Source of the DNA: a virus
Lineage: Duplodnaviria; Caudoviricetes
Reading direction: 5' to 3' (one strand)
IMG/VR virus record: IMGVR_UViG_3300029288_000067
Coordinates: 1-64,000 of that record
DNA length: 64,000 nt
Part shown: piece by piece, positions 42,924 through 62,625 of the stretch
How positions within the stretch are numbered: the stretch's first letter is position 1
Layout: the number at the start of each line of letters is the position of its first letter
The notes under the pieces: model-generated
What the model was told of the DNA's origin: nothing
What the model saw: the letters and a program-made list of their open reading frames with translations, nothing else
Databases searched by the model: none
Made by a program: the position numbers and the translations under genes

Positions 42924-43032
42924 AAAACAAAGAGCCTGCAACGTCACGATTACCGTCTTCCAACGGGCATCAGATTCAACCTTTCGGTATCAGTCTACGT
43001 GATCCCAGAATAGCATGGCAGGCTCTTGTTTT
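42924..43032 (-). ncRNA. candidate structured ncRNA downstream of tRNA-Arg
   Basis: Closing helix AAGAGCCTGC/GCAGGCTCTT, inner TCACG/CGTGA, ACC-GAAA-GGT and CCGT/ACGG hairpins. Confidence 0.45.
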
Positions 43033-43045
43033 TCAAATTGCAGAG

Positions 43046-43117
43046 TAGCGGTAAGAGGAATTGAACCCCTATAGCTGGTTTCGAAGACCAGTTCTCTATC
43101 CGTTGAGATATACCGCT
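43046..43117 (-). tRNA. tRNA-Arg(UCG)
   Basis: Cloverleaf; anticodon arm CTGGT-CTTCGAA-ACCAG. Confidence 0.9.
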
Positions 43118-43125
43118 ATATTCAT

Positions 43126-43197
43126 TGTGCCTAGCAGGAATTGAACCCACATCAGAGGATTAGAAGCCCTCTGCTCTATCCGTTGAGCTATAGGCAC
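43126..43197 (-). tRNA. tRNA-Arg(UCU)
   Basis: Cloverleaf; GAGGG-CTTCTAA-TCCTC. Confidence 0.9.
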
Positions 43198-43208
43198 ATA
43201 ACCTCTGT

Positions 43209-43237
43209 ATATTATCAGATACCCTTGACCATGTCAA
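43209..43237 (-). promoter_or_regulatory. sigma70-type promoter for the tRNA-Arg pair
   Basis: TTGACA-17-TAATAT. Confidence 0.75.
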
Positions 43238-43573
43238 CAAATTCGCATTTGTCTTTTGTAAGACAAATGGATAGTGAGATATATTCCAGTGGAATACTCG
43301 GTTTTATGTTGGCGGATATTAACATTCTCGTTAAATCTTCAAAATAAATGACGGCATGGTAGCAATCCACATATTCCCCAGCATCCATGTCATATTTCTC
43401 GGTCTCGATTTTAAAAGGAAAAACATCGTGATACCACTTGGGTGTTAAGTCAAATGTTTTGAAAATTCCCGGAAGAAATTGATGTAACTTTTGATATACT
43501 TTCGCCAATTTTCTCTTTTTAATATCCGGATACAAAACTCTCCACGAGGCTCTTTCACAAGATGAAATAAAAT

Positions 43574-44320
43574 TCATAAATTACCCTTCTCTTGTTCTAC
43601 TTGGGAGATCCATTTTACAGCACGTTCACATTTTTTGGGGTCAATTTCAATTCCGTAAAAATTTCGATTAAGATTTATTGCTGCAACTCCTGTGGATCCG
43701 CTTCCCATTGCAAAATCTAAGACAGAATCCCCTTCTTCGGTGTAAGTCTTTATCAAGTATTCCAACAAAGCAATTGGTTTTTGTGTTGAATGTTGGTTGT
43801 TTTTCTGTTTGTCCGTTTTAAAAGTAATAACACTACGAGGGTACCTTTCAGTAGAATTATAGGATGTTACCCCCTTCTGTGTCCCGTACAATTCGGAGGA
43901 GTTAATGCTTCGGTCATTCTTTGCCGTTTTTCTTGGGTGACCTTGTGTTTTCTGAGGGAAATATTTGGGCTGTTTCTTGTAAAAGACACAGATAACCTCA
44001 TGGGCAGAAAGGGGTCTCTTCTTAGCATTTAAATGCCCTTTTGCCTCGGTCTTTTCATAAATCCAATCATACCGGTAATCCCTCCAATTACTGAGACGAA
44101 GGGAACTGGCAAAGGGTTCCACCCCGAAAATACAACATGCACCGGAAGGTTTCAATATTCGATTCAATTCATCCCACATAGGCTTGAAGGGTATCACTTC
44201 ATCCCAAGGGGCATTTGTTATTCCGAAAGGCGGGTCACAAAGAATAAAATCGATGTGATTACTGGGGATACATGCCAAGATTTTTAAACAATCCCCGCAA
44301 GATAAAGAGGCTCTGCTCAT
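43574..44320 (-). CDS. N6-adenine/N4-cytosine DNA methyltransferase (beta class)
   Basis: CDPPFG, HSTQKPIAL, VLDFAMGSGSTG. Confidence 0.9.
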   Translation of the reverse strand: MSRASLSCGDCLKILACIPSNHIDFILCDPPFGITNAPWDEVIPFKPMWDELNRILKPSGACCIFGVEPFASSLRLSNWRDYRYDWIYEKTEAKGHLNAKKRPLSAHEVICVFYKKQPKYFPQKTQGHPRKTAKNDRSINSSELYGTQKGVTSYNSTERYPRSVITFKTDKQKNNQHSTQKPIALLEYLIKTYTEEGDSVLDFAMGSGSTGVAAINLNRNFYGIEIDPKKCERAVKWISQVEQEKGNL

Positions 44321-44523
44321 TTTATTTCCAGTTTGTCCAAGGCTTCTTTAAGAGCTTTCCCGGAAACAAAAGAGCATTTATTGCAAACGAAAAGGATATC
44401 CCCATTAGGTTGTTCCTCTTCCTTGATTATCCCCCCGCAGAAACAAATTTCATCGTCTTCATCATATACAACTGAAATCTCGATTCCATATCTTTCCATA
44501 TTATTCCTTTCCGGTATAGAAAA

Positions 44524-44596
44524 AGCTACCCGGGGGACTCGAACCCCCAACCTGTTGATTACAAATCAACTGCTCTACCAGTTGAGCTAGGGTAGC
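44524..44596 (-). tRNA. tRNA-Thr(UGU)
   Basis: Cloverleaf; GTTGA-TTTGTAA-TCAAC. Confidence 0.92.
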
Positions 44597-44629
44597 ATTC
44601 TTCCATCCTACAACAAAGCTTGCATTATT

Positions 44630-44953
44630 TCAAGTAGTTTTTAAAAACTCTACCTTGTCTGCGACGACATAGGAGATTTTAAGAATTTGCCCACTTACTT
44701 CTTTTTCCCAGACCTGCAAATGTCCTTCCACAAGCACAGGGGATCCCTTCTTCAACATCTTTTTACAGACATCCCCTTGTGTTCCAAAAACAGATACTGG
44801 GAAAAAGGAAGCTCTGTTCGTATCCTGCCCTTTGTTCGGTCCCTTGTCCACAGCCAATTCGAGGGAAACAAAATTTGTTCCACCATTTGTACTTTTTGTC
44901 TCGGGATCTTTTGCAAGATTCCCCAACAGATATACTTTATTCAATGTTGCCAC
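44630..44953 (-). CDS. ssb: single-stranded DNA-binding protein (OB fold, no acidic tail)
   Basis: LNKVYLLGNLAKDPE...LKKGSPVLVEGHL. Confidence 0.88.
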   Translation of the reverse strand: MATLNKVYLLGNLAKDPETKSTNGGTNFVSLELAVDKGPNKGQDTNRASFFPVSVFGTQGDVCKKMLKKGSPVLVEGHLQVWEKEVSGQILKISYVVADKVEFLKTT

Positions 44954-44954
44954 G

Positions 44955-46262
44955 TCACGACTCCTTTTTCAAAATAGGGTGCTTCTGGATTACTTTCGAG
45001 AGAGCCCATAGATCAGCAATCCCAAAGGAGGTCTGCAAATCTTTTACGAAGGCTTCAAAAATTAAATATTCCTCGGTGGTTGTTTTTCGAAGTTCTTCAC
45101 ACTCTTTTGTTTTTTGATTCAATACCTTTGACATATTGAGGAGGTCCACTTGAAATTGTCTATTTGCGCTCCGGAGTTGTTCATTTTCAACATTAAAACG
45201 ATTTCGGATTGAGGTATTTTCACACCTAAAATTATCTCGTTCACGGGTCATTTCTTGTAGGTTTTCATCCTGTTTGATGGCAGAAGCGAGAGCCTTATTG
45301 TAGTCTTTCTGTAATGCATTAATTTTTTTTCTCATCTCTGAAAGCTGCAATGCATGGTCCTTGTGTAGTTCCTGCACCTTTTCTTGGAGACGAGTTGCCT
45401 CTTGCATAGCATCCGCACTTGTCCTTGGGAGATTTACATCCTTCTGTGGAAGAATGGGCTGTACCGGTAGTTTCTCTGCCTGTGTTGGATTACTGCCAGG
45501 ATATTTACGAGCATCATGTTCCACAAGATATTTGTTCCACAATACAGACCATTTCATGCTCCCCGACAAAGGATAACCCCAGTTTGTGGCAACATAATGA
45601 ATAAAGCAACAAATCATTTCCGCAGATTTTTCATTTTGTGGGCGAATAAAGTTCTTAACATCCCGCTTTAATGTCTGTAAGACATGCCGATAGACCCCCA
45701 CATTAATTCCATGTTTCGTAAGAATATTGCAGAGATTTTCAACTCTTGTCCTTTTTTGCAGAGGCTTCAACATATCTGCTGTGATAGCAAGACTACTATC
45801 TTCTGCAATAAACTTCCTCCACAGACTCATAGAGTTTTTATCTTTTGCGGCAATTCCCGGAAATTTATGATTTCGCCAAACAATAAATCGTGCCAATCTT
45901 TCCCAGTCCTGTGGGGTTCTTGTTCGAGGAATTAAACGATCTGCCGTTTGTGCCAAAGTAGTTGGGAATAAATTGTATTGAGTCGCAATTCTCTTAATAA
46001 CGTTCATATTCGCCCCCGTATTTTTTTCGTATGCTTCAGCAACAATTGCCAGTTTGTTTGAGGGGAATAAGGCATTCGGGACTTCTTTTTGATATTGTTC
46101 AATAAGTTCCCGGGCACTCCTCCCCTTCATATTGGGGTCCTTGTCCAGAGTCCATTGAACAAATTGTTTAAAAAACCCAATGGTTTGCTTTGTGAGTTTG
46201 ACTCCCGGAAAAACAATTTTTTTCAAAGAATCATAACGACTTTTGAAACTTGTCTTATGCAT
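44955..46262 (-). CDS. hypothetical protein with a C-terminal coiled coil
   Basis: 435-aa ORF. Confidence 0.6.
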   Translation of the reverse strand: MHKTSFKSRYDSLKKIVFPGVKLTKQTIGFFKQFVQWTLDKDPNMKGRSARELIEQYQKEVPNALFPSNKLAIVAEAYEKNTGANMNVIKRIATQYNLFPTTLAQTADRLIPRTRTPQDWERLARFIVWRNHKFPGIAAKDKNSMSLWRKFIAEDSSLAITADMLKPLQKRTRVENLCNILTKHGINVGVYRHVLQTLKRDVKNFIRPQNEKSAEMICCFIHYVATNWGYPLSGSMKWSVLWNKYLVEHDARKYPGSNPTQAEKLPVQPILPQKDVNLPRTSADAMQEATRLQEKVQELHKDHALQLSEMRKKINALQKDYNKALASAIKQDENLQEMTRERDNFRCENTSIRNRFNVENEQLRSANRQFQVDLLNMSKVLNQKTKECEELRKTTTEEYLIFEAFVKDLQTSFGIADLWALSKVIQKHPILKKES

Positions 46263-46293
46263 GTTTCCATCCTTCTATATGTGTTGTGGACAA

Positions 46294-46366
46294 TAGCGGG
46301 TATTGGATTTGAACCAATGATCTTTCGGGTATGAACCGACTGCTCTACCAACTGAGCTAACCCGCC
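46294..46366 (-). tRNA. tRNA-Met(CAU), elongator type
   Basis: GGCGG.. acceptor, loop TTCATAC; TTGACA-17-TATTCT promoter at 46378-46406. Confidence 0.85.
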
Positions 46367-48217
46367 AGCGTTTACATAGAATATCAACTTTTTTGTTCTT
46401 TGTCAACACTTTCCTTGGCATTTAAGACCAATTTGAAGATATCTCGCTGTATTGTTATGTAAAGATCTCGCAGCGTTTTTTCTTTTTCCAGTCTTTCGGT
46501 GTGTTGTTTTCTGAATTCCTCTGCTTTTTCCGGAGGCATATCCTGTATTACGATCTCCAACAATTCTTTGGCTACTGTTACTTGTTGTTCATAGGTTTGT
46601 AGAAAATTTTCTTTTTCTTTTTCTGGGTTTGGGCTTCGTAAAAATTCCCGGACAAGCAAATAAGAAATTGCTTGTGTTTCAAAACTATCTCTAACCTTCT
46701 CAAAAAGGATGGTGTCCTTATCTTCTTTATCCAATTCAAACAAATCTTTCATTTCTATCTTCTCCTGTCTGTAATTTACCACCAAAGGCCCAACCAATTA
46801 TCCCCCAACTTTTTGAGCCCCTTCTTCACTTTCTTTACTTTTTCTTCAACCATAACCTCATCGTTTGCAATCAACTCCAAAGCAACAATGATATCTTTTA
46901 CATCTTTGATATGTTCTTTATTTTCCCCTTGAAAAGTTACAATCCTAAGATACTCCTTTACCCGGGGTAAAGCAAACCGTGCAAGGGTTGTTCGTAAATC
47001 CCATGTCTCGGACTCATCAAACCCCCTCTCCAAGCGTTCCTTCTTGAACCTATCTGCCCGGTCATCCTTCGGGTTGAAGATTGAAAAATTAACATTGGGG
47101 ATACCATAAGGATCAATTCTTTTTTTCATCTATCTTCTCCGCTTGATTTTCCAACCACAATTCATTTTGTAGTAATTTTGACAACAGATTAATTTCTATC
47201 CCGGATTCATTTATCTGACCCAACACAAATGCAGCGGTCATGTAATCCTTCTGATCAATTCTTCGGGCAATCTCATCAATGTTGGTTTTCATCTGAAGGG
47301 TTAAGGTAGAAAGACTTGTAATATGACCCATTATTCTATTCATAATCTATTCCCCAAACTTTTTCTTCAATCTTTGGTATGTTTTCTTTTCAAGTGCAAG
47401 ATTGTAATCCTTCTTCTTTTTCTCGGAGATTTCCATTTCTTTAACTTTTTTTGCAATGCTTTTATCGAGTTCTTTTTTCCATTCATGTTCGGGCATCCCC
47501 AACAACTTTGACGGAAAAGAGATATCAAGCATTAACTCACCATCAGATTTGTCTTCAAAAAAAACACTAACATGGTCTTCCGTGAAAGAATACAATAAAT
47601 TATTGTCGATGTAACTTCTTGAGTGATAAAGATAAGATAATTGTGCTTTTTCTCCTTCTTTCAGATAATACAAAACAATTGATTCTGCAATTGCTTTCAA
47701 TTCATTTTCAATCTTCTGTGCTTCTTGTAGTTTTTGGAGATACTCCACAATTTTTTGCATATTCGTCAATTTCCTCCTGTGTTATTTCAGCATAACTGTC
47801 TTGTCTTTTGAAATATTGAAGGTCGAAGCATTTCTTTGCACAACTACCCTCGTATTGAACTGGGTTACTGCATAGGGTATAAACCGAGATTCTTCCCCCG
47901 CAAAGAGGGCATCTAAGATTGAAGTGATTCAAGGGTAAACCTGCACAATTTTCAAATCCCCGGAATCCAAGAGTTGTTGAATGATTTGAGAAATATCTGC
48001 GGATGATAAATATTCTCGCTCTTTCCCCCGGCAGTATTGGAGTTCAAAAATAGAGGAAATATGATGGTGTAGTGCAGTTCTTGCATGTCCGGCCTTATTC
48101 CACTTCGATTTGCCTGAATAAAGCTTTAAAACATGCCCTTTCCTATCCTGTAACACCCAGATCTCAATTGGCTTAATTACCGGGAAACAAACCTGCAAAG
48201 AGTTCAGTACATCAGCT

Positions 48218-48808
48218 TTATTCATTCAAAAAAGGCTCCACTTTGCTGAAAAATTGTTTGAGTAGCATCAACTTCCCTGGAGTACTATCAAGAATAGTCT
48301 CTTTCTCGCTCACACGGAATGTATCCTGCAAATCAATTATTTGTGCTATTTTTTCCTCGGGGATATTTCGGAACTCTTTCAGCCGTTGCATTCTTACTTC
48401 CCGGGTGCAGAATACATAAATGATATTGTCACAGACTTCATCCAGCCCAAGAGTGTAGAGGAGGGGACATTCAATAAAGACAACATTTTCATTCTTCCCC
48501 AATTTCTTTGCTGCTTCAAGAACCCGGAGAGATCGGGAGACAAGCAGTGGGTTAATAAGCTTCATCAATTGGGATAGTTTCTCGGGGGATGCAAAAATAA
48601 TATCACTGACAGCCCTCCGGTCCACTTGCCCATTTTTCAAGGGAAGATGCCCGAGAACCTGTTGAAGGATCTCTCGCCCTCTTGGGGTGTTTATTACTCT
48701 GTGGTTTACCTTATCAACATCCATAACCACAAAGCCCATTTCTCGAATCATTTTTCCGAGAAAAGATTTCCCGGAAGCAATTTTACCGGCAATCCCAATT
48801 ATTTTCAT
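48218..48808 (-). CDS. coaE: dephospho-CoA kinase
   Basis: IIGIAGKIASGKS, DVD, VDRRAVSDIIF, ECPLL. Confidence 0.85.
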   Translation of the reverse strand: MKIIGIAGKIASGKSFLGKMIREMGFVVMDVDKVNHRVINTPRGREILQQVLGHLPLKNGQVDRRAVSDIIFASPEKLSQLMKLINPLLVSRSLRVLEAAKKLGKNENVVFIECPLLYTLGLDEVCDNIIYVFCTREVRMQRLKEFRNIPEEKIAQIIDLQDTFRVSEKETILDSTPGKLMLLKQFFSKVEPFLNE

Positions 48809-50950
48809 ACTGTTCCTATTTTATGGGTGCAGTTTAAAAAAGGACTCTGTGAGGTTATGTACAAGATCTTTCATTACATCGGCGGTAAAACAATTGTACC
48901 CAAGAGTGCTTTCAATTGTGTCTTGTATTTCTTTTGCAATAACCCCTCTTCGATCTCTTGTTGAGATAAATACCTGCAAGGCATTCGAGATTACATGGGC
49001 ATATGCATAATCTTCTCTTTTGAGAGCATCTTGAATTTGTTCACAAAGAATAATGGGATATGCCTTACTCTCATTACTCTCTTTTGGGGGTTTGACTTTT
49101 GGCATGGGGATATTAAGGATATTGGGGGAGACTCCAGGTAAACTTTTGGTATCCATTATTTACTTTCCTTCAAATTCTCTTTCAGCAATGCCCACCATGT
49201 ATTGGTTTCTGCACAAATCTCTTCTTGCCTTTTAAGCTCTGCAATTGCTTTTGAAAGTTCTTCTCGAACAGTGTCTTGTTTTTTTCCGATGAGCCGAATA
49301 ACAACGTCAAGGCATACTTTTTTCCACGGGGTTAATTTTGCAGGAACTTCCCAAGGGAGACTATTCCACTTCAACCCAATCTGGAGTTGATTCAATGCAA
49401 ACTCTTTCAGATTCGTATATTTATTGAAGCACCTCCAAGCTTTTACCTTTTGGATCATCTTCTCATATTTTTCTTTTGTCTTTTTGGTCTCTCTGTTATG
49501 CCGAATAACCGCCGCATATTGTTCTTCCCGCTCTTTTGCAAATTCCTCATAAAGAACTTTGATAGGTGTTGTTGTCAATCGTTTGAGTTCTTTTTGAAGA
49601 TCCAACACTTTTTTCTTAAAGTGTGTATCAACAAAAGCTTTCTTTAAATGGGCATTGTCCATACTCCGAGAACGAGGGTCAAAGGCAGTTGCCATTTCCA
49701 ACATCATCGTTTTGAAATCAAACTTCAAATTTTCGGGATCTACGAACATATTGTTCTTCTCCTGTATGTGGATATCTTGGAGGGATTTTACAAAAGTAAT
49801 GTATCACTCCCCAGTCTTTTTGTCAAATTTATCTATCCGGGATATTAATTCTCGGGCTTCCTGTGAAGTCAACCCAAGAAATTCTTCTGTGTCTTTCGGG
49901 GGATTATCACAAGGATGGTCACAACAAAAGAGGGCATTTGTTGTGGGGTTTAAATACAATTTTTCTGCATGTTGTTGAAGACAGGCAAAAGCAACTGCGG
50001 CAACTTGTAAAACCTCGTGTATACCGGAGTCTCTTCCAATTTTATTTTTAAGCCAACCCAATTTGGCTTCCTTTATTTCTTCCTCCAAAACCAACAAAAA
50101 TCCTTCAAAGGGTTGATCTTTGTCTTCTAATGTCCCATATTTCTTTGTTTGATATTCTCGCTCTTGTTGAATTAATTCAATTACCTGTTGTTCGGAAAGC
50201 ATCAAATTCTCCTATTTACTTTGGGGAATACTCGGACATGCCAACACACTCTTTACATTTAAGGGTTAAAAAAATGTTCTGACTGAATGCACAATCCTCA
50301 CAACGTCTATATGTTCGAAATCCCACAGGTTCACATTTTATGGTCTCGTAGATTTGAGAACAAGTTGAGGGCTCATCGAAAGCAAGATGGGGTTCTCGAT
50401 GCTTGCACTTTTCACAAATACATCTTTTTGCCCGATTGCATACATACAAAATTCCAACAATTTCCTCGGGGGTTGGTAAAGGACTCATGATTTTTTCTCC
50501 AATCCTGGAATCAATTTGGAGGAAATCATACTGGAAACAGTTGTGTGTGTTGGGTTCTTTTCCGCGTATTCCTCGAAATATGTACTTGCTTTTTCGAGGG
50601 CACTTGTTGAATCTGTGGCCCACACCCAAATTTTTACGTATCGATATGCTTCATCAGAAAAAGCATAATCTTTTGCGGGGGGCATAGGGGATTCTCTTGT
50701 TACTGAAAGACCCTCCCTCACAAAGTCATAGTGAACACAGTAATATGTAAGTTTCGAATAGTCCTGTGTCACAGCATTTATTTTAACTTTCCACGTACGG
50801 GCTCGTGGGGTTATGTCTTGCAGTTGTTTGGCTTTTACAGGGTCATCAAGGATAACATCCACAAAATCAAGGTTGTTATCAGATTTGACATAAACAATGT
50901 AAGCATATTCAGGTTGTTTGTTTTTCATATATTCTCCTGTATTTATAAAT

Positions 50951-51065
50951 AGGTGGGGGCGAGAGGGGTGACCTCTTTCTTTTCATATCCGTATATCAAG
51001 CAAGGGTCCGGAACACCTTACCATGAATCCGAAGATTATACGGACGGCAATTCTTTGCAACCCCC
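50951..51065 (-). ncRNA. tRNA/tmRNA-like structured RNA
   Basis: GGGGG 5' end pairs with CGCCCCC-A-CC; AGAGG/CCTCT arm; 9-bp GTCCGTATA/TATACGGAT helix; C(UUCG)G hairpin. Confidence 0.55.
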
Positions 51066-51072
51066 GAAACAA

Positions 51073-51146
51073 AGCACCTGATGGGACTCGAACCCACAAA
51101 ATTCCACACTGGCAATGTGGTGATCTACCAATTGATCCACAGGTGC
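51073..51146 (-). tRNA. tRNA-Gly(GCC)
   Basis: CCACA-TTGCCAG-TGTGG. Confidence 0.9.
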
Positions 51147-51201
51147 AAAAAGCAATGATTTATCGGCCCGAAACTCTTGTAAGAAATCACCGCTTTTTAA
51201 A

Positions 51202-51277
51202 TACACCCGAAAGGACTTGAACCTTCAACCTTTGCCTCCGCAGGGCAACGCTCTAAATCCAGTTGAGCTACGGGTGT
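51202..51277 (-). tRNA. tRNA-Arg(GCG)
   Basis: TTGCC-CTGCGGA-GGCAA. Confidence 0.88.
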
Positions 51278-51292
51278 GTAACTTCTTTCTAT

Positions 51293-51321
51293 ATATTACC
51301 ATTACTCCTTTGTAATTTCAA
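51293..51321 (-). promoter_or_regulatory. sigma70-type promoter for the tRNA cluster
   Basis: TTGAAA-17-TAATAT. Confidence 0.65.
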
Positions 51322-51327
51322 GCTAAA

Positions 51328-52122: not shown

Positions 52123-52154
52123 GTTGAACCTCCATTAGGGTTTAACATGAGAAA
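52115..52154 (-). promoter_or_regulatory. hairpin sequestering the RBS and start codon of the HNH gene
   Basis: TTTCTCATGTT-AAACC-CTAATGGA-GGTTC-AACATGAGAAA. Confidence 0.7.
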
Positions 52155-52179
52155 TGTATTATCTTCTTAAAACAAGAAA

Positions 52180-52250
52180 TAGGCGCATTACGATTTGAAC
52201 GTAAATTCTGACATCCAAAGTGTCATGTCCTGCCGTTGAACGATGCGCCC
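52180..52250 (-). tRNA. tRNA-Gln(UUG)
   Basis: TGACA-CTTTGGA-TGTCA. Confidence 0.85.
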
Positions 52251-52408: not shown

Positions 52409-52414
52409 ATAAAA

Positions 52415-52533
52415 ACTGTGACCCTGCTGTTTGCCCTTAAGTGGGCTGATTATACCGGCAGGGCTCGGGCTGGTTCCCCTATACCCGTGCGCCCATTTCT
52501 GGATTACGGGTGTTCCACCTTTGTCACCACAGC
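52415..52533. ncRNA. candidate ~118-nt three-way-junction RNA upstream of tRNA-Pro
   Basis: GC-rich island; CTGTG/CACAG closing helix, ACCCGT/ACGGGT and CCCTGC/GCAGGG arms. Confidence 0.5.
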
Positions 52534-52559
52534 TTTTTTATTAATTAGACTTCCATTTC

Positions 52560-52588
52560 ATTTAACCACACAGAGATTCGATTGTCAA
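52560..52588 (-). promoter_or_regulatory. sigma70-type promoter
   Basis: TTGACA-17-TTAAAT with an upstream TG. Confidence 0.6.
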
Positions 52589-52884: not shown

Positions 52885-54080
52885 CTCTAAGGCTCCTTGT
52901 TTAAGGTTTCTTAGAGAAAACTCTCCGGGTACTGTTGAATATTCATTTTTACTCTCCTGTGAGTAGATCAATATCTTCTTCGATACGTTTAAGCCCTTTA
53001 TTGGACTTTTCCAGAACATCCATTGCTTCCGAAATTTTTGAAGTACTGCTGCATTCCGATACAGCTAATCTAATAGAATGTATTTTTCTTTGTAAATTCT
53101 TCAATTGCCGGATTGACAACGATTCAGTTTCGGTATTTTTCATTTTTTACATCCCTGAAAGAGTTTTATATGTCAAAAGATTCTTTTCCAAGTCTGAAAT
53201 TGTCTGCCGAAGATACCCAATACAGAGCATTGTTGGTTTATTGTATTCCCGGGTATGCACCTCTGAGGACCCACAAACCCGGCAAGCTTCTGTTGCTTCT
53301 TTTTTTGCAGAATTGTGTCTTCGATCGTTTATGGTATATGCCATCTTGTCTTCATTTCCTTAAAAAATTTAAGAGTTTGATTACAAAAAATGTTATCAAA
53401 CTCCCGAGAAGAAAGTAATATTTTAATTCCTCCTCGTGCATTTCCTTCAAACAATCATTGTGATAATCTGTTCCATTTTCATCGTGACTCGAATAGTGAC
53501 ATTTCGGGCAGGTATCTCCATACATCAGTATTTCCCCTCTAAGTATATTTTTGGAGGCATGTTGAATCTTCGCTTAAAAGAGCAAGTTCCACACAAGACT
53601 GTTGCCGTTCTACCTATTGGGGTATCTGGAACTATCAACAAGATCCCACAATCAACACAAGGAATTTCTACGACTCCTACAGGCTTTTCCTTCGGATCTG
53701 TCATATTTTCGCTCATATTGGGAACTACCATCCTGCTGCCTCTTCCTGTCCAATCGCCAGCCCGATAGACTTTCCAAGAGAATATCCTTCGAGATAACTC
53801 ACAAAAGCCTTGTTTGTTTCCCCATTGGTATACCAGTGCCCCGCAGGAGCTTCTCCTCGTTTTTCCCGGGTTACTTGCATATGCTTGTGGGTTTTTTCAA
53901 AATTGTCCATCACTTCACTCAATTCTTTGGAATTCATGGGCATACTCCTTTTTATTTCATCGCTGATGAGGATGAGAAATACTATTCCCCTGTTGCAACC
54001 TACAACAGACTTCCTCACAACAAGAAGACACCTTGTTGTGAGGCAATTTATTTTGCCCTATAGACACAGGGCATGAGCAA

Positions 54081-54630
54081 TGCCGGGAGCGGGACTTGAA
54101 CCCGCACGAGATTTCTCCCTCCGGATTTTACCTACCACTTCGGCTTTCGCCGCCAAGACTTTAACTTTCTGTACCCGTGGGATACAGGGCTTTTCTTGTT
54201 CGTGGTCTGGATCATATCTTTGCACAGGTCTATGCCATCTCCAGCTTTGAAAGCCTTTATGACACGCTTTGCAAGCGAAGCCCGAGTTTCCTCTGACAAG
54301 GCAGTTGGCACATGATCTCTACGAGGGTATTCATTTCTTCCCACGTTAGGCGTTCTTCACGTCCCGTCAGGATTCATCATGAAAGAACCTTCTCTCGGAA
54401 TTGGGTTGTCCTGTCCCTCTTTCAAGTGCTCCGTATCCCAGTAACGAGATTCGGGAGAAGAGGGCTTCACCACGTATGGAGTTTATCCTTATTTGGTAGC
54501 TCTCACTATACTTTTTCAGCAAGCCGTTTTCCGATTTCGCCAACATCCCACAGGGAATTTCTTACCCTGTGGACCCATTTCACATTTGTGTTACTAGAGT
54601 CCGGTGTGTCTACCGTTTCACCATCCCGGC
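54081..54630 (-). tRNA. tRNA-Leu(UAA), intron-containing
   Basis: 5' exon GCCGGGATGGTGAAACGGTAGACACACCGGACT (54630-54598) + 3' exon TAAAATCCGG...long variable arm...TCCCGGCA (54130-54081). Confidence 0.9.
54131..54597 (-). mobile_element. group I self-splicing intron (467 nt, no homing ORF)
   Basis: Follows U, ends in G; P1 GGACU/GGUCC with U.G wobble; P AAATCGGAAAAC, Q AATTCCGAG, R CGTAGAGATCA, S AAGATATGATCCA. Confidence 0.88.
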
Positions 54631-54656
54631 TATTTGTTTTTCAAAGAACTACAAGT

Positions 54657-54685
54657 ATATTACCGTAAGAGCAACAAAACTTCAA
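54657..54685 (-). promoter_or_regulatory. phage sigma70-type promoter for tRNA-Leu
   Basis: TTGAAG-17-TAATAT. Confidence 0.7.
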
Positions 54686-55190
54686 GGTCTCTTTTGTACA
54701 ATCTGCAAAGAATCTTCGTCCTTTATCTCTTTTTCCTCAATTGTTGCAAGAGAAAGAAGAAACCGATTTCGGTCCATTTTAATTTCTTCTATTTCTTCGG
54801 GGAAGGGATACTTTGGATATTCCAACTCTTTGGCTTTCTGTGGAGGACACAGAAAGATAGTTTGTTGCGCCGAAGATTTATCCCTATTTTTCAATGTTGT
54901 AACGATTATTCTTTTTTGCATATTACCCCCTCCCCAGTTTCAACAATAAGTTGTTAAGAGTGTCTTTGTCACTTTCCGCCCCACCATTTTTCTCAAATAA
55001 CTCCACAATTTTGAGAATGAGTATATCCCTTTCCAACAATTTCATTTCTTCAGTAATACTTGATAATTCTGCTATTGCAAGAGTTAATTTACCGGTGTTT
55101 AAATACTCTTGCATTACTTTTGAACTTATTTCAAATTCTTTTGCAGTTCGAGCAATTCTGTTTTCATTCAATTTTTTGTAAGAAATCATA

Positions 55191-56216
55191 CTATTTCACC
55201 TTTTTGCAGAAAGTAAAGAGTTTCTCGGGATGGGCAAGGATTGCATTCCCACAGGTTATTCCACTTTCATCTTCTTCTTTCGAGGCAATAAATGTGATGA
55301 CATCAAAGCCTTCATTTCGGAGATCTTTTTCGATTTCTTTGTAAGGATAAAAAGTGGTGTAATTTCCCGGAGTTTTAATCCCTTTTTCCAGGGCTTCCGG
55401 GGTTTTATGCATAGGGGTCAATTTCACAACGTACCAATCTGGATTGAAATATTTCTTCAAATCCTTTCCCTTTATCTCATACTCTGCAACGGCAAAATTG
55501 AGGGTATATTTTCTTCCTTTCGGAGGAGAGTCAATCAATTTTGCAATTTCGGAAAGATCTAAGGAATTCCCATAAAACATATCTTCCCGGGCAGCGTCCG
55601 AAGTGGAATTGATAGAGAATTGTAACCCTGCTTCTCCTGCACAGGCAATATTTTTAAAATCAACCCACCGAGATACAAATCTTTGCAGAAATTGATTATT
55701 CTTCGGGAGCATTGTGGAAACCACAGGATGGAAATTACCCCCTCCTAATTCTGTGAATTGTTTTCCCGCGATAGCAACGGGAAGAACCTCTTTGTTAAAG
55801 GAGGGCTCCCCCATACGGGCAAAATGTAAATTCAATCGCTGGGTTTTCTTAATCTCTGGATGCAAAGAGAGAGCGGTTTGTATCTGTGTCAGCATATCCC
55901 TATAGGAACAATTCAACCCTTTACCTACTTTTGGAACAGAACAAAATTTACACCCCATAGAACATCCATACTGGGTTGAAATTGTGATGACCCATTTTTC
56001 AGAAAGGGGGAGCATTTCTTGATGTTTCACTTCCGAAATTTCCTGGGACAATCCCAAGAAATCTGCTTTAATATTTGCCTCTTTCCCATAATCCCCCAGA
56101 GAGACACACTCAAGCAACCCACCCTCACCTCTTACAACAAGGATATGCCCGGTGGGAACCTCATACAAATTTACAAGGTGGGGTTCTTTTAAAACATCCA
56201 AAGAATTGTAATCCAT
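55191..56216 (-). CDS. RlmN/Cfr-like radical SAM RNA methyltransferase
   Basis: ISTQYGCSMGCKFC, ARMGEP..N, C-terminal ITCG (position of the RlmN catalytic Cys). Confidence 0.8.
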   Translation of the reverse strand: MDYNSLDVLKEPHLVNLYEVPTGHILVVRGEGGLLECVSLGDYGKEANIKADFLGLSQEISEVKHQEMLPLSEKWVITISTQYGCSMGCKFCSVPKVGKGLNCSYRDMLTQIQTALSLHPEIKKTQRLNLHFARMGEPSFNKEVLPVAIAGKQFTELGGGNFHPVVSTMLPKNNQFLQRFVSRWVDFKNIACAGEAGLQFSINSTSDAAREDMFYGNSLDLSEIAKLIDSPPKGRKYTLNFAVAEYEIKGKDLKKYFNPDWYVVKLTPMHKTPEALEKGIKTPGNYTTFYPYKEIEKDLRNEGFDVITFIASKEEDESGITCGNAILAHPEKLFTFCKKVK

Positions 56217-56217
56217 G

Positions 56218-56829
56218 TTATTTCCCTTTCTGCAATTTTTCTCGAAACAAAACAGCTTGTTTGTGTGCTTCCTCGTGAGTATTCCATTTCATGTTACCCT
56301 CGGGATCCTTGACATCCAAATGATCGATTCGGGCATAGAAATGCTTTCCCTCCGGCCACCTTGTAATGTTGATTTTCATATTTGAATTGGGGAAAACAAA
56401 GTCATCTTTTGTAACCGTATCAAGAATAGTAATTTCCCCGTGAGGGTAGAAATAAGCTCCTGTGGGGGAGATATACAGGGTTTTGTAGGTTTCCAAGCAT
56501 TTCCACATATTTGCAACAACTTTACCGACAAAATCCGCTGCAATTTCCCAGATCTTTTTGTTTTCTCCTCGGAGAGCCGAAACCTCGCAGATTTGTCGGA
56601 TAACTCTGCCCATATCTGTGCGGGCATGAGAGTATTGTGATTCTGTTCTTCCCAACAAATAATCACATTCCTTGGAGAACATGAAATCCTCAACCCCACG
56701 ATTGATATTTTTGGCCTGAACATTTTCGTACCATACCATCAATTCCTGTTCGGATTGCACTTTCAACAGATAGTCATACTCCAAGGTATGTCCCCGGGAA
56801 GCTATTGTTATTTTTTCAAAAGTGGGCAT
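56218..56829 (-). CDS. hypothetical protein
   Basis: ORF track. Confidence 0.55.
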   Translation of the reverse strand: MPTFEKITIASRGHTLEYDYLLKVQSEQELMVWYENVQAKNINRGVEDFMFSKECDYLLGRTESQYSHARTDMGRVIRQICEVSALRGENKKIWEIAADFVGKVVANMWKCLETYKTLYISPTGAYFYPHGEITILDTVTKDDFVFPNSNMKINITRWPEGKHFYARIDHLDVKDPEGNMKWNTHEEAHKQAVLFREKLQKGK

Positions 56830-57828
56830 GTTATTCCCCCCCATTCTACAAATTCTGCTTCCATCTTCAGAAGCTTTTCTTCGGCATCTTTCATTTCATT
56901 TTGCAATCTCTGGATTTGTTCCTTGGTTCTTTGAATCTCTTTCCAAGCTGCGTATTTTTTAACTTTTGGAAAGAATGTATCCCCGTATTGTTCTATGGCA
57001 GAAACCGCTACCCCATCCAGAAGTTCAATTATTTCGGCAAGGTATTCCCCACACTTTGGTCCAGCACCAATCAAAAGAGATGCCCTATTAATTGCCCTTT
57101 TTGTCTCCATATCCAACCCAATAGCAAATTGGACCATTCTATCCTTGAATTCTACAGCATGGTCTGTTTCAAGCTTAAGACCCATAAACTCCCCACAGAC
57201 ATGCAAACAAGTGATTCGTAATGGTCCCAAGGAAGTGATTACCTCAATTACGGGTTCTTTCATTGTTTATCTCCCATGAAGGTATTCCGAGTTTCCGAAA
57301 AGTACCAAGAAGTGTATTTGTGCCCGTATTTCCACCAATAATAGAAATTGAAACTGGAGCCGATTGTGAGGGCTTTGATTGCAACTAGGATGAAAAGATA
57401 TTGAAACATACTTATTTCCTCCTCGTTTGCGTTAATTTGGGTGTAGCTCCCTTTTTCCAAGCTGTGGCACATTTCTTCTGGTCCCCTAAAATCCCCCGTG
57501 CAAAGCCCGAAACAGAGGACAAATTGAACAATTCCAAGTCTTTGTCGGGGACATTTGGCAACAGGGTTTTTCGCAGACCTTCAACCCCAGCACATTTTAT
57601 GATTTTGGGTTGCCATTCGATCATATAAATACATGCCGACATGCTTCTTTCAAATGAAGCTTTGTGACATTCCCGGTAAGCCTCTTCAAAGTGCCAGAGA
57701 CCTTCTCGCTCGGAGTTGAACCCAATCACTTTTTCATCATCATCCAGAGCAATGTAATACTTCTCGTCACAAAAATACAGAATCACCCAAAAGTCTTTTG
57801 TCTTTTTCATATTTATCCCTCCGGAAAG

Positions 57829-57857
57829 ATATTACCGGGAGATGGGTAAAACTTCAA
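57829..57857 (-). promoter_or_regulatory. phage sigma70-type promoter (family member)
   Basis: TTGAAG-17-TAATAT. Confidence 0.7.
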
Positions 57858-58059
57858 AGGGAATTTTTATTATCGTTTGTGTCTTCCTCACAATACAGGG
57901 TTTTCCCATCCTTATTTGCTAAGAATTCGGCAATCGCAGTAGTAACCACCCGCGACAACTTGAAAAATGTGTGTTACTACGTACCCAAACCCGACCTTTT
58001 TCCACATATGCATAGGCTTCTTCTTTGGTTGCCTTTTGATATTTTTGCATATTCTCCTC

Positions 58060-58923
58060 CTATAAAATTGTGGCTCCCGGAGTATTCCAATCCAAAAACA
58101 CACGCCCAGAAGGATGGTAAATAAGATTCCTTACTGTATCATCTACAACACTTCGAGTGAGACACCTTGAAAGACAGATATTTAATCCTGATTTTGGGAA
58201 AACAAATACATCGGCCCCGTGAGGAAGTGTATATACATATTTTCCCCCAAGGGTATGCACAACATTCTGTGTTGTTAAATTCCAGTAATTTTCATCAATT
58301 CGGTGTTCTTCCACGAATTGTTTCTGTGGAGAATTTTCTCCTTCTGGGGCATTGATGGGTGTTACCGTGATTTGATCAACTTCATTATTTTCTGCAAAAT
58401 AAATAAATTGAGTCAGTTCCTCAGCGGTATCAATAAAACCTTTCATGGCGACAAGAGAAAGTCGGACAGTATATCCCATCTGTCTCAATTTAAAAATAGT
58501 TCGTGTAAGGAAAGGATATTCTTTGTTGTATATTTCTGCATTTCGAGCATTCTGATAATGCACAACAGACAGAGAAATTGTGGTTAATCCCAGAGAATAC
58601 CACGTTGGAAGGTAGGTGTCCCAAATCACTTGAGAAAACAAGCCATTGGTTTGCAATTCTTTCAGAGGAAAATCTTTGAGATATCCCAAGTAACCGGAAA
58701 TCTCGTTCGGGTGCAGGGTGGGCTCCCCTTTACTTGTAAGAATAAGAGTTGTTGCCCCTTTTTGCATTGCCAGCTTATATGCTGCGTCAAGATGATTTCG
58801 ATTGATGGAAAAATGCTTATCCCTTTTAATCTCTGGGGTCATTTTTGCAATACAAAAGGGACAAGAGGCATTACATCGAGAATCGCCCACTAAAACATTC
58901 ATTGCCGTAACATTAAAATTCAT
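58060..58923 (-). CDS. radical SAM protein, function unknown
   Basis: CNASCPFC, TSKGEPTL, LQTNG. Confidence 0.85.
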   Translation of the reverse strand: MNFNVTAMNVLVGDSRCNASCPFCIAKMTPEIKRDKHFSINRNHLDAAYKLAMQKGATTLILTSKGEPTLHPNEISGYLGYLKDFPLKELQTNGLFSQVIWDTYLPTWYSLGLTTISLSVVHYQNARNAEIYNKEYPFLTRTIFKLRQMGYTVRLSLVAMKGFIDTAEELTQFIYFAENNEVDQITVTPINAPEGENSPQKQFVEEHRIDENYWNLTTQNVVHTLGGKYVYTLPHGADVFVFPKSGLNICLSRCLTRSVVDDTVRNLIYHPSGRVFLDWNTPGATIL

Positions 58924-59313
58924 CTCTATATCCTTGTATTTTAGGAGTATGTTGCGAGGATTCTGAAAGATAGGTCATTGTATCGAACATATTTCAGAAG
59001 AATTCTCTCGAAAGAACTTTTCCAATTCAACAAATCATCGAAAGAGAAAGAAGTACTTCCGAGGTACAACTCCACAGCAATTTCATTGTCTTTCAAACAC
59101 AAATCACCACAAGTTGAGTATGGATCGAGTGGAGGTTTAAAAATTTGGAATTCTTTGCCATTAATCCCAAACATCCCCGGGCAATCTTCTACGGGAAAAT
59201 CTTTTTCTAACTTTTCGAGATCTTCCCAAACACTTATGCCGTCCAAAATAGCAATAAGATGCAGATTGTTGCTACGAGACATGTATTCACTCCTCTATGT
59301 ATGTCTTTTTCAG

Positions 59314-59385
59314 TAGACCCGGTGGGGATCGAACCCACGACTATTCGGTTATGAGCCGAAAGCTCTACCACTGAGCTACAGGTCT
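59314..59385 (-). tRNA. tRNA(CAU), Ile2-like
   Basis: AGACCT.. acceptor and CGG-CTCATAA-CCG arm resemble bacterial tRNA-Ile2. Confidence 0.8.
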
Positions 59386-59389
59386 ATAA

Positions 59390-59636
59390 GTAATGCAGGT
59401 AAAGAACTACTAGGCTTACAGGGCATCTTTGTGGGCTCCGTCGTTTGTCTGACTCCTTAGAAACCAGCATCAGGCAATCTATCTGATTTCGGCATCAGTG
59501 GTTAGTTCCACTCGACTCCACAGTATCGACCCTTACAATTGCCATTGTATTACTATCCCGATGAACTCGATAGTTTTCGCCAGCCCCAGACGCATTTAAT
59601 AAGGCTTGTGTGTCACATACCACACCGCTGCATTAC
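59390..59636 (-). ncRNA. candidate 247-nt multi-hairpin ncRNA
   Basis: 9-bp closing helix GTAATGCAG/CTGCATTAC enclosing at least 7 hairpins; no ORF. Confidence 0.6.
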
Positions 59637-59660
59637 AGAACAACCCCGTAAAGGGCACCT

Positions 59661-59828
59661 GCATACCACATGTTGCCACAGTCTCCCCAAGGATTTAGGG
59701 ATATAACCCAGTTGTGTACTCATGCCTGTCATTCTATCCCAACAAGCACCCCTCCACAACCGTTTCGTTTTACCATTTGCAAATTCCTGATAGAGGGAAT
59801 ATTGCTACAGCGAACGAGGGCGGTATGC
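59661..59828 (-). ncRNA. 6S RNA-like rod (168 nt)
   Basis: Terminal stem, central purine-rich bubble with a small 3' hairpin, apical stem. Confidence 0.55.
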
Positions 59829-59839
59829 GAACAAGACAA

Positions 59840-59915
59840 TTGCGGGAGTTGGATTTGAACCAACGATCTGTGGCTTATGAGACCACCGGGAACGACCATA
59901 CTTCCCCATCCCGCA
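59840..59915 (-). tRNA. tRNA-Met(CAU), initiator-like
   Basis: TGCGGGA/TCCCGCA acceptor, loop CTCATAA, T arm GTTGG-TTCAAAT-CCAAC; only two of the three anticodon-stem G-C pairs. Confidence 0.8.
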
Positions 59916-59920
59916 TTAAG

Positions 59921-59949
59921 ATATTACCACAACACCTTCAAAACTTCAA
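59921..59949 (-). promoter_or_regulatory. phage sigma70-type promoter for the tRNA/ncRNA operon
   Basis: TTGAAG-17-TAATAT. Confidence 0.75.
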
Positions 59950-61409
59950 GCTATTCTTTGACTTCCTCAAACCGGCATTCTTTCATAATTTTTGGAGGGT
60001 AACTGAAACCCTCAACATCTTGAATAGCAAAAAATTTATCCCGATCCAAGTCCTGCATAAAATCTCCAAGAGTTTCCGGAAACTCGAAAACAAAATTGAT
60101 TTTTGAGACCATATGTGTTGCCCGGATCTTCATTTTGTGGATACCTTTCGAGAAATCAATCGATCTTTTTCCCAATATTCCACAGTCACATCGGTTTCGG
60201 TTTCAATTGTTACTTTCTTTGAAACAACCTTACCAAAAGGATCAAATTGTTCCTCAGTAGTAATCTTGGGCTTCTTGTCGGATGTTTTCTTCTTCAACTT
60301 CTCCACCAATTCGTCTACATCTTTCACTTTCAAGAAATCGTCAAAATACCCATTGGCTTTATGCAAGAATTGTTCAACGTAGCTTGTGATAGGTTGAGGT
60401 TTATTAGGGCAGTTCATACAGGCAGCAGTACCGGCAAGAGAGCAACAACAAACAGCCATTTTATATTTCTCCAGTATCAATCGATTTGATTCACGAATTC
60501 CGAAACATCAATCACAGGGTACTTTACCACGATCTCCCGAAATTTTTCAAGGGTAAGATTCAAATAAATGAGGACATTCACAACATTTGTCCTCGGGGAG
60601 ACATACTTCACGAAAAGATTCCCGTTATCCTCCAAAGCCCACACAGGAATGTTGAGATGGTTGAAATCAGTTGGACCACAAATTTCAACCATCTCTGGTT
60701 TGATATTGTACGGGCTTTCAGCGGGAACTTTATTGAATCCTCTTGGGAATCCAAGATAGATCTTTGTAAGGCCCCCAATAAATGTCCCCGGATGATGTTT
60801 CGAACAAGTAAAACCACCCCAGTTCGAACTTTTTGAAACATTTTGGCATCTCTCTCCCCGATTACATGCTTGCATACATCCCGGGCAGAAATATTTTTCA
60901 ACAGCCTTCAAAACAGTTTCAGGAACGGTTGAATTGTTTTCGCTCTGCATGTTTAATCTCCTGTATGTAAGTATGTACTTTCTTTGCCTCATGAATCCAA
61001 TTTTCTTCCGGCAGTTCTGTAACAAGATCCACGGGGACATAATTCTTGTGCGACGGTAGTTTATCGGTGTAATGCCCGAGGAATGTAAACCCACTACCCG
61101 TAGGATCTTCCACAAGAGTTAATCCCATAGGGCGGATTTTCTTGTTTATCGTTGCAAGGCTGTATCGTTTTTCGCCCATATTATTTTTCCGAGATGGTGA
61201 TGGATAGACCTTGCAGGATCTGTGGTCCGTCACAATATCGGTCGGTTTCCTTATATCCCATCACTTCTTGGATGCATACCTTGGAATATGGGGGAATATC
61301 AATCCCCTTTGCTTTTGCATACATCCTCACCATCTCTTCCAGTTCCAGCGAGGACACCTTGTAAGAGGTCACAGTGCTTTGTCTTTCCATATTCGCTCCT
61401 TATGCAGGT

Positions 61410-61438
61410 ATATTACCGCGAGGACTCAATTTATTCAA
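61410..61438 (-). promoter_or_regulatory. phage sigma70-type promoter
   Basis: TTGAAT-17-TAATAT. Confidence 0.6.
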
Positions 61439-61809
61439 GATTATCTTACAATACCCATTTTCAGTAAAACCAAATGAGCAAAAGTTTCTTTCTTGAAAAA
61501 ATTGTAGTCCACTGTATGATTTGGGTAATTTTCTTTCAAAGTTTTAACAATGATATCAAAATAGTTGAACAATTGCTGTTCTGCAAGCTTAATCGCAAAA
61601 CTCTGTAATTCCTTTTGAAATAATTCTGTTCCTTTGTAGGAATTGAACAGATCCTCCCCAAGATGATCCTTGAATTGTTTCATCAAATCAATTGTAGAGA
61701 GTGGTTTGAGACCATCCTCTACACCACTCACTAATGTTTGTTCGGCCCCGGGGGGAAGCTTTGCAATTTCTTCTACAAAACGTGACAAATCTTCATTTGA
61801 TAACATACT

Positions 61810-62625
61810 TTACTCCTGTTCTGTAATTGGTCTGTGTCCTTTGAAAACAAAGGACACTCGATTCTTGATCTTGTGGAGCGGGGGGATAGAAACTTCCACA
61901 ATATCTTTCCGCTCAATTTGTAGATCTGGATTGGACCGGGCATCATGCTTCTCCGGTAATTTCTCCAACTCTTCTGTTGTGAATTTCCGGAAAGAAGAAA
62001 CCTTCTGCAGATAAATCCCTCGCTTGAAGAAATCCGGGAGATCGTTGAAATTTACCCCCTTTTGGAATAACATTTCCTGTTTCTGCTTCCCGTCTTTTCC
62101 CTCAAGCTCTTTGTGGTAGTAATACACCCGTGCAGCCATAGAGATAGCATTTTTTGTTGCATCTTGCTCTCTCCACAGCAAATAATTCACTGCTTCGATG
62201 CACGTTGGGACATTCCAAGCCCTGCAATCAAAAATAGCTGGTCGCGACATCAGCCTTTCCGGAAAGAACAATTTGCAACCCTCCTGGAAAAAATATGTTG
62301 CAAGGGATGCCAACACAGAGTTGATTTTGTAAATCTTCCCATCAAAAATCAATTGTGATTTCGGGTTTTCCTCGTAAAGAATGAGAGAAATCTCATCCGA
62401 CTGGGTATACCCAATAATGGCACTTGTTTCTTCCATCAACTTCCTTGTTACATACGAAAAGATTTTCCGCAGTCTTTCATCATAGGGACGATTCATGCCC
62501 TTCGTGTAACTGTGAAATGCCTTCCCATCAATGCGAATGCAGAGAGGGAGAAGAGGCATAGCAATGAGGGAGGTACCATTCCTCTCATATGCTTTCATGC
62601 GGTTGCCAAAAGAATCATTCTGCAT
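61810..62625 (-). CDS. tRNA(His) guanylyltransferase / Thg1-like 3'-5' polymerase
   Basis: RMKAYE, IRIDGKAFHSYT, GYTQSDEISL, FDCR, YLLWREQDA.KN, FKRG. Confidence 0.92.
   Translation of the reverse strand: MQNDSFGNRMKAYERNGTSLIAMPLLPLCIRIDGKAFHSYTKGMNRPYDERLRKIFSYVTRKLMEETSAIIGYTQSDEISLILYEENPKSQLIFDGKIYKINSVLASLATYFFQEGCKLFFPERLMSRPAIFDCRAWNVPTCIEAVNYLLWREQDATKNAISMAARVYYYHKELEGKDGKQKQEMLFQKGVNFNDLPDFFKRGIYLQKVSSFRKFTTEELEKLPEKHDARSNPDLQIERKDIVEVSIPPLHKIKNRVSFVFKGHRPITEQE

Follow-up and report, generated by a model that had tools for sequence, protein, structure and literature searches.

What are the folded segments without open reading frames (ORFs) that lie between the tRNA genes of a jumbo phage, and could they be cut out as separate RNAs? 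The question is raised by IMG/VR record IMGVR_UViG_3300029288_000067, a jumbo phage record of 224 kb (39% GC), of which the first 64 kb were analyzed here and are referred to as the window. About 92% of the phage genome consists of coding sequence or tRNA genes, and at 42 to 62 kb the genes and all 11 tRNAs called with ARAGORN and Rfam are located on the minus strand. We tentatively interpret 4 of the segments among these genes, here called E1, E2, E3, and E5a, together with the hairpin E2b, as putative passenger RNAs that are carried in tRNA precursors and would be released by RNase P and RNase Z, in the manner of RNAC and RNAD in phage T4.

Folded segments beside the tRNA genes

The segments were read on the minus strand and folded, and the z-scores were repeated with dinucleotide shuffles and with a coding control of 60 random 120-nt coding windows, for which z was -0.42 ± 1.05 and the GC content was 0.40 ± 0.05. 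The segments were as follows, with minimum free energy abbreviated MFE:

42925-43033, minus strand: E1, 109 nt, GC 0.47, MFE -37.4, z -3.3 on the minus strand and -3.55 on the plus strand
50951-51066, minus strand: E2, 116 nt, GC 0.51, z -3.45 on the minus strand and -1.13 on the plus strand
51147-51201, minus strand: E2b, a 55-nt hairpin with a 15-bp stem and a 25-nt loop, z -2.1 / -2.3
52412-52538, minus strand: E3, 127 nt, GC 0.54, z -2.6 to -3.0 on the minus strand and -2.2 on the plus strand
53938..54080, minus strand: E4, MFE -53.6, z -5.8; in the repeat, z -6.7 on the minus strand and -5.2 on the plus strand
59390-59636, minus strand: E5b, 247 nt, GC 0.47; folded as 59390-59660 (271 nt), z -0.3 to -0.7 on the minus strand and -0.4 on the plus strand
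59661-59829, minus strand: E5a, 169 nt, GC 0.48, MFE -62.1, z -3.3 to -4.1 on the minus strand and -1.8 on the plus strand

No sense-strand ORF of at least 50 aa was identified in the named segments, whose GC contents ranged from 0.43 to 0.54, compared with 0.40 in coding sequence. In E1, E2, E3, and E5a the values were 0.47 to 0.54, and each of these 4 segments is closed by a helix of 6 to 15 bp and located 3 to 13 nt from a tRNA gene. An earlier note on this DNA had described ORF-free, GC-richer, helix-closed elements in the region; the description holds for E1, E2, E3, and E5a, and fails for the fold of E5b and for a segment that it placed at 53965, which corresponds to E4. Its observation that the elements lie close to a tRNA gene or to each other was confirmed, with distances of 0 to 13 nt, and its list lacked E2b.

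E1, which is located between a tRNA-Arg gene and the ORF at 42561-42902, folds into a branched structure with a GAAA-capped hairpin inside a closing stem of 15 bp with one bulge, preceded by an A-run on the 5' side and followed by a U-tract on the 3' side. E2 begins 7 nt past tRNA-Gly(GCC) and forms a cloverleaf-shaped four-way junction, in which an end stem of 6 bp (GGGGGU/GCCCCC) is followed by ACC. Its arms are a D-like hairpin of 4 bp, a 9-bp arm bearing two hairpins, one of them C(UUCG)G, and a T-like hairpin of 5 bp with the non-canonical loop UCACC. E2b fills the whole spacer between tRNA-Arg(GCG) and tRNA-Gly(GCC), with an A-run on one side and a U-run on the other. E3 is a three-way junction located between a promoter and tRNA-Pro, 3 nt before the tRNA, and its closing stem is likewise bordered by an A-run and a U-run.

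The largest of the strongly folded segments, E5a, starts 10 nt past the tRNA(CAU) gene at 59840-59915 and has a 9-bp closing stem and 3 arms in both the MFE and the centroid structures. E5b is an ORF-free block that ends 4 nt before the tRNA(CAU) gene at 59313-59385; its ends pair in a perfect 9-bp stem, a feature that is at about chance level in 454 nt (estimated expectation about 0.4). Two ORFs, one of 42 aa in E5b and one of 15 aa in E5a, were considered and dropped, as their start signals were unconvincing. The stability of E2 and E5a is strand-asymmetric, which points to G·U pairs and thus to RNA structure rather than to DNA palindromes.

Promoters and transcription units

The units were found to follow the layout proposed earlier, in which a promoter is followed by one or more tRNA genes, a folded ORF-free segment, and then a further tRNA gene or an ORF. 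The promoters and the first tRNA pair were:

43209..43237, minus strand: promoter TTGACA-17-TAATAT with TG upstream; agrees with the consensus at 10 of 12 positions; ends 11 nt ahead of a tRNA gene
43045..43198, minus strand: tRNA-Arg(UCU) at 43125-43198 and tRNA-Arg(UCG) at 43045-43117; CCA not encoded
51293..51321, minus strand: promoter TTGAAA-17-TAATAT; heads tRNA-Arg(GCG), E2b, tRNA-Gly(GCC), E2, and an ORF
52560..52588, minus strand: promoter TTGACA-17-TTAAAT with TGG before the -10 hexamer; heads E3, tRNA-Pro, tRNA-Gly(UCC), and tRNA-Gln
54657..54685, minus strand: promoter TTGAAGTTTTG-N10-GGTAATAT of a phage-wide class; heads the tRNA-Leu unit
59921..59949, minus strand: promoter TTGAAGTTTTG-N10-GGTAATAT; ends 6 nt ahead of a tRNA gene

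The promoter at 43209..43237 is followed by tRNA-Arg(UCU), tRNA-Arg(UCG), E1, and ORFs, and the promoter at 59921..59949 by tRNA-Met, E5a, E5b, tRNA-Met, and ORFs, the 2 tRNA(CAU) genes of the latter unit being those that border E5a and E5b. The promoter at 52560..52588 was read directly from the sequence; the promoter scan does not list it, since its rule demands that the second base of the -10 hexamer be an A.

The suggestion that the units lie behind sigma70-type promoters was supported by a motif, TTGAAGTTTTG-N10-(C/G/T)GGTAATAT, with 36 matches in the genome compared with 3.7 in shuffled sequences. The sites span positions 17,968 to 205,085, with examples in the window at 31262, 33038, 35032, 54657, 57829, and 59921 on the minus strand, and most copies are located on the sense strand, 6 to 40 nt ahead of a gene. 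Copies of the motif stand at the start of the tRNA-Leu unit and of the tRNA-Met/E5 unit, and both tRNA-Arg units begin with close variants. It probably represents one temporal class of promoters that is read by the host sigma70/sigmaA holoenzyme.

We also noted that all 32 tRNA genes of the genome lack an encoded CCA, and that a U directly follows the 3' end in 29 of them (with the ends as called by ARAGORN). In Bacillus, tRNA precursors that lack CCA are cut directly behind the tRNA by RNase Z and directly in front of it by RNase P. The CCA-less tRNAs, together with strong Shine-Dalgarno sites, suggest a host with RNase Z-type processing of tRNA 3' ends, that is, a Bacillota-like or Gram-positive-like host.

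Taken together, these features suggest a route by which the segments could be released. Short units with one or more tRNA genes would start from the phage's own sigma70-type promoter, and the elements would be co-transcribed with the tRNAs. RNase Z would then cut behind each tRNA and RNase P ahead of it, the cuts being expected right at the tRNA ends because CCA is absent and a U nearly always follows the discriminator base. This would free discrete RNAs of 55 to 170 nt, in which the closing helices join both ends and should slow exonucleases. Such "tRNA punctuation", we infer, is mechanistically reasonable. The freed RNAs may act in trans, and our guess is that their partner would be a protein of the phage or the host and not a target RNA or DNA recognized by base-pairing.

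Searches for known families and homologs

The Rfam models were run on the whole window at gathering scores, on the 42 to 64 kb region at E up to 5, and on each element singly at E up to 10 with lax filters. In these scans, which covered 4,227 families and included the cmscan check that the earlier note had called for, only tRNAs were found, and the elements gave no match to the models for 6S RNA, tRNA, tmRNA, Y RNA, 5S RNA, the signal recognition particle (SRP) RNA, or RNase P. The 6S model had no match to E5a at E up to 10 in a 466-nt scan or at E up to 5 in a 22-kb scan, and E5a folds as a three-way junction, not as a long rod with a large central bubble, so that its reading as a 6S RNA is unsupported. 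The tRNA and tmRNA models gave no match to E2 at E up to 10, and ARAGORN calls nothing at this position; E2 has the topology of a cloverleaf and an end stem followed by ACC, and the likeness is one of topology only, as the sequence signatures of tRNAs are absent. A covariance model built from E2 matched E2 itself and nothing else in the window, in the complete genome of the nearest relative, G001, in part of a second relative, G002, or at other loci.

Searches with megablast and blastn against 50,697 phage records returned tRNA matches only. A blastn search of the elements against the phage's own genome revealed no paralogs, and E1 has no copy elsewhere in it. Scans of the IMG/VR and GTDB genomes with degenerate and exact motifs from E1 gave no match, while the corresponding scans with E3 gave one coding-like match, which by eye resembled a ribonucleotide reductase, and 4 chance matches with unrelated flanks. 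Other candidate identities were tried and discarded: E3 as a 5S-like RNA had no model match, and E1 as a hammerhead or as a k-turn or box C/D RNA had misfitting motifs and no model match. Membership of the elements in a Y-like scaffold family was also rejected, as the scaffold AACUAC / AAGGGAUUACA / AAUCUCUU is confined to 208.3 to 210.6 kb of the phage genome.

Alternative explanations

Release as passenger RNAs from tRNA precursors is the explanation that we prefer, although we give it somewhat less than an even chance. It is supported by the layout and the short distances to the tRNA genes, by the z-scores relative to the coding control, by the strand bias of E2 and E5a, by the higher GC content of gaps next to tRNA genes, by the lack of encoded CCA, and by the finding that the promoter class heads 4 of the units. 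Several observations weigh against it. No homolog of the elements was found by any search, the island in which they are located is absent from G001, and there is no evidence of conservation or covariation. E5b shows no unusual thermodynamic stability, the two strands of E1 and of E3 are about equal in folding, and the U-runs at the ends of E1, E2b, and E3 are like those of leaky terminators. Furthermore, the intergenic gaps of the whole genome have a mean z of about -1.8, whether or not they are adjacent to a tRNA gene, although the GC content of the gaps is 0.43 next to tRNA genes and 0.38 elsewhere (p = 0.016). Since strong folding is common across gaps, folding alone is not distinctive of the tRNA neighbors. 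Nearly as likely is that the segments act only in cis, as attenuators or leaky terminators by which the amount of tRNA is balanced against that of the downstream mRNA, as processing guides, or as protection for the end of the mRNA once the tRNA has been removed, and that no free RNA is made. The stems of E1, E2b, and E3 are each preceded by an A-run and followed by at least 4 to 5 U, in their units the segments E1, E2, and E4 stand exactly between the last tRNA gene and the first ORF, a stretch that contains no promoter, and at 216.3 to 216.6 kb the head of another tRNA operon likewise forms a branched helix with a U-tract behind it, all of which, like the genome-wide folding of the gaps, would fit a role in cis. 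However, the ordinary terminators of the phage are simple GC hairpins with short loops and U-tracts, from which the branched elements differ: the stems and U-runs of E1, E2b, and E3 are present, but the "loops" that they enclose measure 25 to 100 nt, and internal domains of 77 to 100 nt should terminate poorly. Behind E2b and E3 lie tRNA genes that lack a separate promoter and need read-through, so efficient termination is impossible there. E5a is located between 2 tRNA genes and has no ORF to protect, and the ORF that follows the tRNA-Met gene at 59313 has no such leader.

It is rather unlikely that the segments are functionless, decaying remnants of former tRNA genes, of introns or homing endonucleases, or of island filler. 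Such an origin would agree with the absence of the island from G001, with the lack of anything similar in the databases searched, with the HNH endonuclease gene between the tRNA units, with the tRNA outline of E2 in the absence of tRNA sequence signatures, and with the unremarkable structure of E5b; yet filler is rare in a genome that is about 92% coding or tRNA, and neither the GC enrichment nor the strand-specific stability of E2 and E5a is expected in decaying DNA. The earlier note had proposed that the elements imitate housekeeping RNAs of the host, such as 6S and tRNA/tmRNA, and form a coordinated kit for host takeover or anti-defense that nearby RNA-modifying enzymes would service. The cloverleaf topology of E2 with its ACC tail, a 109-nt tRNA-like gene in G001 in which 47 nt replace the anticodon loop, and a Thg1 gene 2 kb from E5 are in line with this idea, which we nevertheless consider highly improbable: no element was recognized at E = 10 by the models for 6S RNA, tRNA, tmRNA, Y RNA, SRP RNA, or RNase P, E5a is a three-way junction and not a rod, the assignment of an RlmN-like enzyme is far below the family cut-off, and the enzymes are tied to the RNAs by proximity only. 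There is also a slim chance that E1, E2, E3, and E5a are the founding members of undescribed classes of RNAs that act in trans once tRNA-processing enzymes have released them, for example protein decoys directed against host defense or RNA surveillance.

A split tRNA-Leu gene

The segment at 53965, which had been listed as one of the elements, turned out to be a run of hairpins that trails an overlooked, intron-split tRNA-Leu(UAA) gene:

54081..54630, minus strand: tRNA-Leu(UAA), intron-split; exon 1 at 54630-54598, intron of 467 nt at 54597-54131, exon 2 at 54130-54081

E4 is thus not a passenger RNA. It consists of 3 to 5 hairpins, one of which is a perfect hairpin of 12 to 13 bp, that extend from the tRNA-Leu gene to the ORF starting at 53937. 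The gene was not called by the default ARAGORN run or by Rfam. It was detected through a BLAST search within the phage genome, in which the intergenic sequence aligned with the 3' half of tRNA-Leu(CAA), and the 5' half was located upstream at 54630. When introns were allowed, ARAGORN identified a tRNA-Leu(taa) that is interrupted behind position 33 by an intron of 467 nt. Once joined, the exons form a canonical class II tRNA of 83 nt, which is identical to the phage's own tRNA-Leu(CAA) at 64 of 83 bases, and both halves match tRNA-Leu genes of other phages. The CUUAAAA loop of the spliced tRNA is the same as that of the uninterrupted tRNA-Leu(UAA) of G001.

The 5' splice site is located behind U33, and the exon sequence GGACU pairs with the intron guide GGGUCC, with U33 in a U·G pair. 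The intron ends in a G (...GGUAGG) directly ahead of UAAAAUCCGG, and candidates for P2, P3 (GUUGGC/GCCAAC), P7 (GAUCA/UGAUC), and a GAAA-capped P9 were identified by eye in the expected order. The Rfam model Intron_gpI gave no match to the intron at E up to 10; its seed contains 12 sequences, none of which is bacterial (Williams 2020, doi 10.1101/2020.01.27.920355). Because the Rfam group I model misses the intron, we refer to it as group-I-type and not as a proven member of the group.

The intron resembles the cyanobacterial tRNA-Leu(UAA) intron "Leu.3Ug" in that it interrupts the same tRNA, has a U at position -1 in a U·G pair with the guide, ends in a terminal G, and restores a CUUAAAA loop. 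In contrast to "Leu.3Ug", the phage intron is inserted after U33, whereas the classical site is after U34 (Williams 2020, doi 10.1101/2020.01.27.920355). It further differs in being phage-borne, in its length of 467 nt, in being unseen by Intron_gpI, and in that the proposed P7 (GAUCA/UGAUC) is unusual.

The island and its relatives

The elements belong to an island at 41165-61806, which comprises about 20 kb with about 40 ORFs, 12 tRNAs, and the RNA elements, and which has no counterpart in G001. The phage and G001 have 118 of 313 ORFs in common, none of which is located at 41.2 to 61.8 kb, while the flanking genes for the DNA polymerase and Thg1 are present in both. A blastn search with a 17-kb region gave no match to G001 or G002. 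The 41 to 62 kb block is absent from G001 and is therefore an accessory, fast-changing island.

Searches of IMG/VR with the major head protein identified only G001 (197 kb, 90% identity) and one fragment of 24.6 kb, and with the DNA polymerase G001 and G002 (35 kb). With Thg1, the 2 radical SAM proteins, a neighboring 435-aa protein, the DNA polymerase, and the major head protein as queries, the lineage in IMG/VR comprised only G001, G002, and the 24.6-kb fragment. The DNA polymerase had no close match among the JGI metagenome contigs, and the 435-aa gene in the middle of the region had no homolog other than itself among 5.8 billion proteins. A landfill metagenome, the probable source, was the sole sequencing run found to contain the region, no RNA run being listed, and its contigs yielded no usable variants of it. 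The phage lineage is thus rare.

Three enzymes of the region had been put forward as RNA-modifying:

55191..56216, minus strand: radical SAM protein, 341 aa, phrog_24834 (PHROG match 1.4e-106)
58060..58923, minus strand: second radical SAM protein, 287 aa, with weak MoaA-, QueE-, or viperin-like similarity
61810..62625, minus strand: Thg1-family tRNA-His guanylyltransferase / 3'-5' polymerase, the sole gene of the region with a homolog in G001 (52% identity)

The identification of Thg1 was sustained by Pfam PF04446 (3.8e-29; 101.7 bits against a cut-off of 29.2) and by phrog_4717 (4.5e-77). The 341-aa protein, which had been called an RlmN-like methylase, scored only 31 bits with TIGR00048 against a curated cut-off of 290, with only residues 68 to 146 aligning, and its similarity to RlmN chains (E about 1e-4) covers residues 69 to 146, which is the core only. 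The second protein is a radical SAM protein whose similarity is generic only. Judged from the sequence matches, only Thg1 among the enzymes of the region is a confirmed RNA enzyme, and the link between the enzymes and the RNAs is one of proximity alone.

The other genes of the island encode an SSB protein, a CoaE-like kinase, a DNA methyltransferase, an HNH endonuclease, and orphans. Placed among the orphan genes, a gene at 48218-48808 on the minus strand encodes a dephospho-CoA kinase family protein (TIGR00152, 3e-28, above the cut-off). Outside the island, 741 nt at 3949-4689 (32% GC) are without an ORF in a simple gene call, in a genome that is otherwise dense.

We also noted folded sequences beside tRNA genes in G001. 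A 109-nt tRNA-like gene at 93426-93534 (Rfam tRNA, 41 bits), in which 47 nt replace the anticodon loop, is directly followed by a helix-closed, multi-hairpin element in the next 100 nt or so, and about 240 nt of folded non-coding sequence are located behind a trio of tRNA genes. The occurrence of folded RNAs beside tRNA genes in G001 is a recurring architecture, not homology.

Comparison with known systems

GOLLD and ROOL are large, ornate RNAs of phages and prophages that are located near tRNAs (PMC12286853). They share with the elements described here that they are phage-borne, structured, and placed beside tRNA genes, but they are several hundred nt long and widely conserved, whereas the elements are orphans of 55 to 250 nt with no match in Rfam.

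A second resemblance is found within the same phage. A Ro60/TROVE gene was identified in the 206535-210740 region (vWA_Ro60 1.3e-15 and TROVE 6.3e-09 in Pfam), and it is followed by an array of scaffolded RNAs that are interleaved with tRNAs (206.5 to 210.7 kb), 142 kb from the elements. This gene and the separate RNA array beside it show that the phage clearly invests in non-coding RNA. Like the Ro60-associated Y RNAs and YrlA RNAs (tRNA-like Y RNAs), including those of this array, the elements are helix-closed, modular RNAs interleaved with tRNAs; unlike the RNAs next to the Ro60 gene, they do not contain the scaffold AACUAC...AAGGGAUUACA, and no Y RNA family was found in the scans with all Rfam models. 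If the elements did represent undescribed trans-acting classes, the phage, with its Ro60/Y-RNA-like array and its split tRNA, would be among the most RNA-rich known.

Ever since the work on T4, small RNAs in the tRNA clusters of phages have awaited an explanation, and each delimited example is a new candidate. The scarcity of relatives limits the value of the present case, in which the segments may be functional RNAs or structured spacers. The phage offers 4 compact, strongly folded candidate RNAs whose flanks are defined and whose promoters form a clear class, as well as a tRNA-Leu gene that a self-splicing-type intron interrupts at an unusual site.

The closest parallel to the elements is provided by the small RNAs of T4, and stable RNAs of a similar kind are encoded among the tRNA genes of phage T5. 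RNAC and RNAD of T4, also known as the species 1 and 2 stable RNAs, are small non-tRNA RNAs of unknown function encoded in the tRNA region (PMC3014915, PMC9697503), and they were identified as late RNAs by Northern blot (PMC9697503). Whereas expression and processing have been demonstrated for T4, they are predicted for the elements of the present phage, which belongs to a different lineage. The likeness is one of arrangement: like RNAC and RNAD, the elements are located inside tRNA transcription units, on the same strand as the tRNAs, and are free of ORFs.

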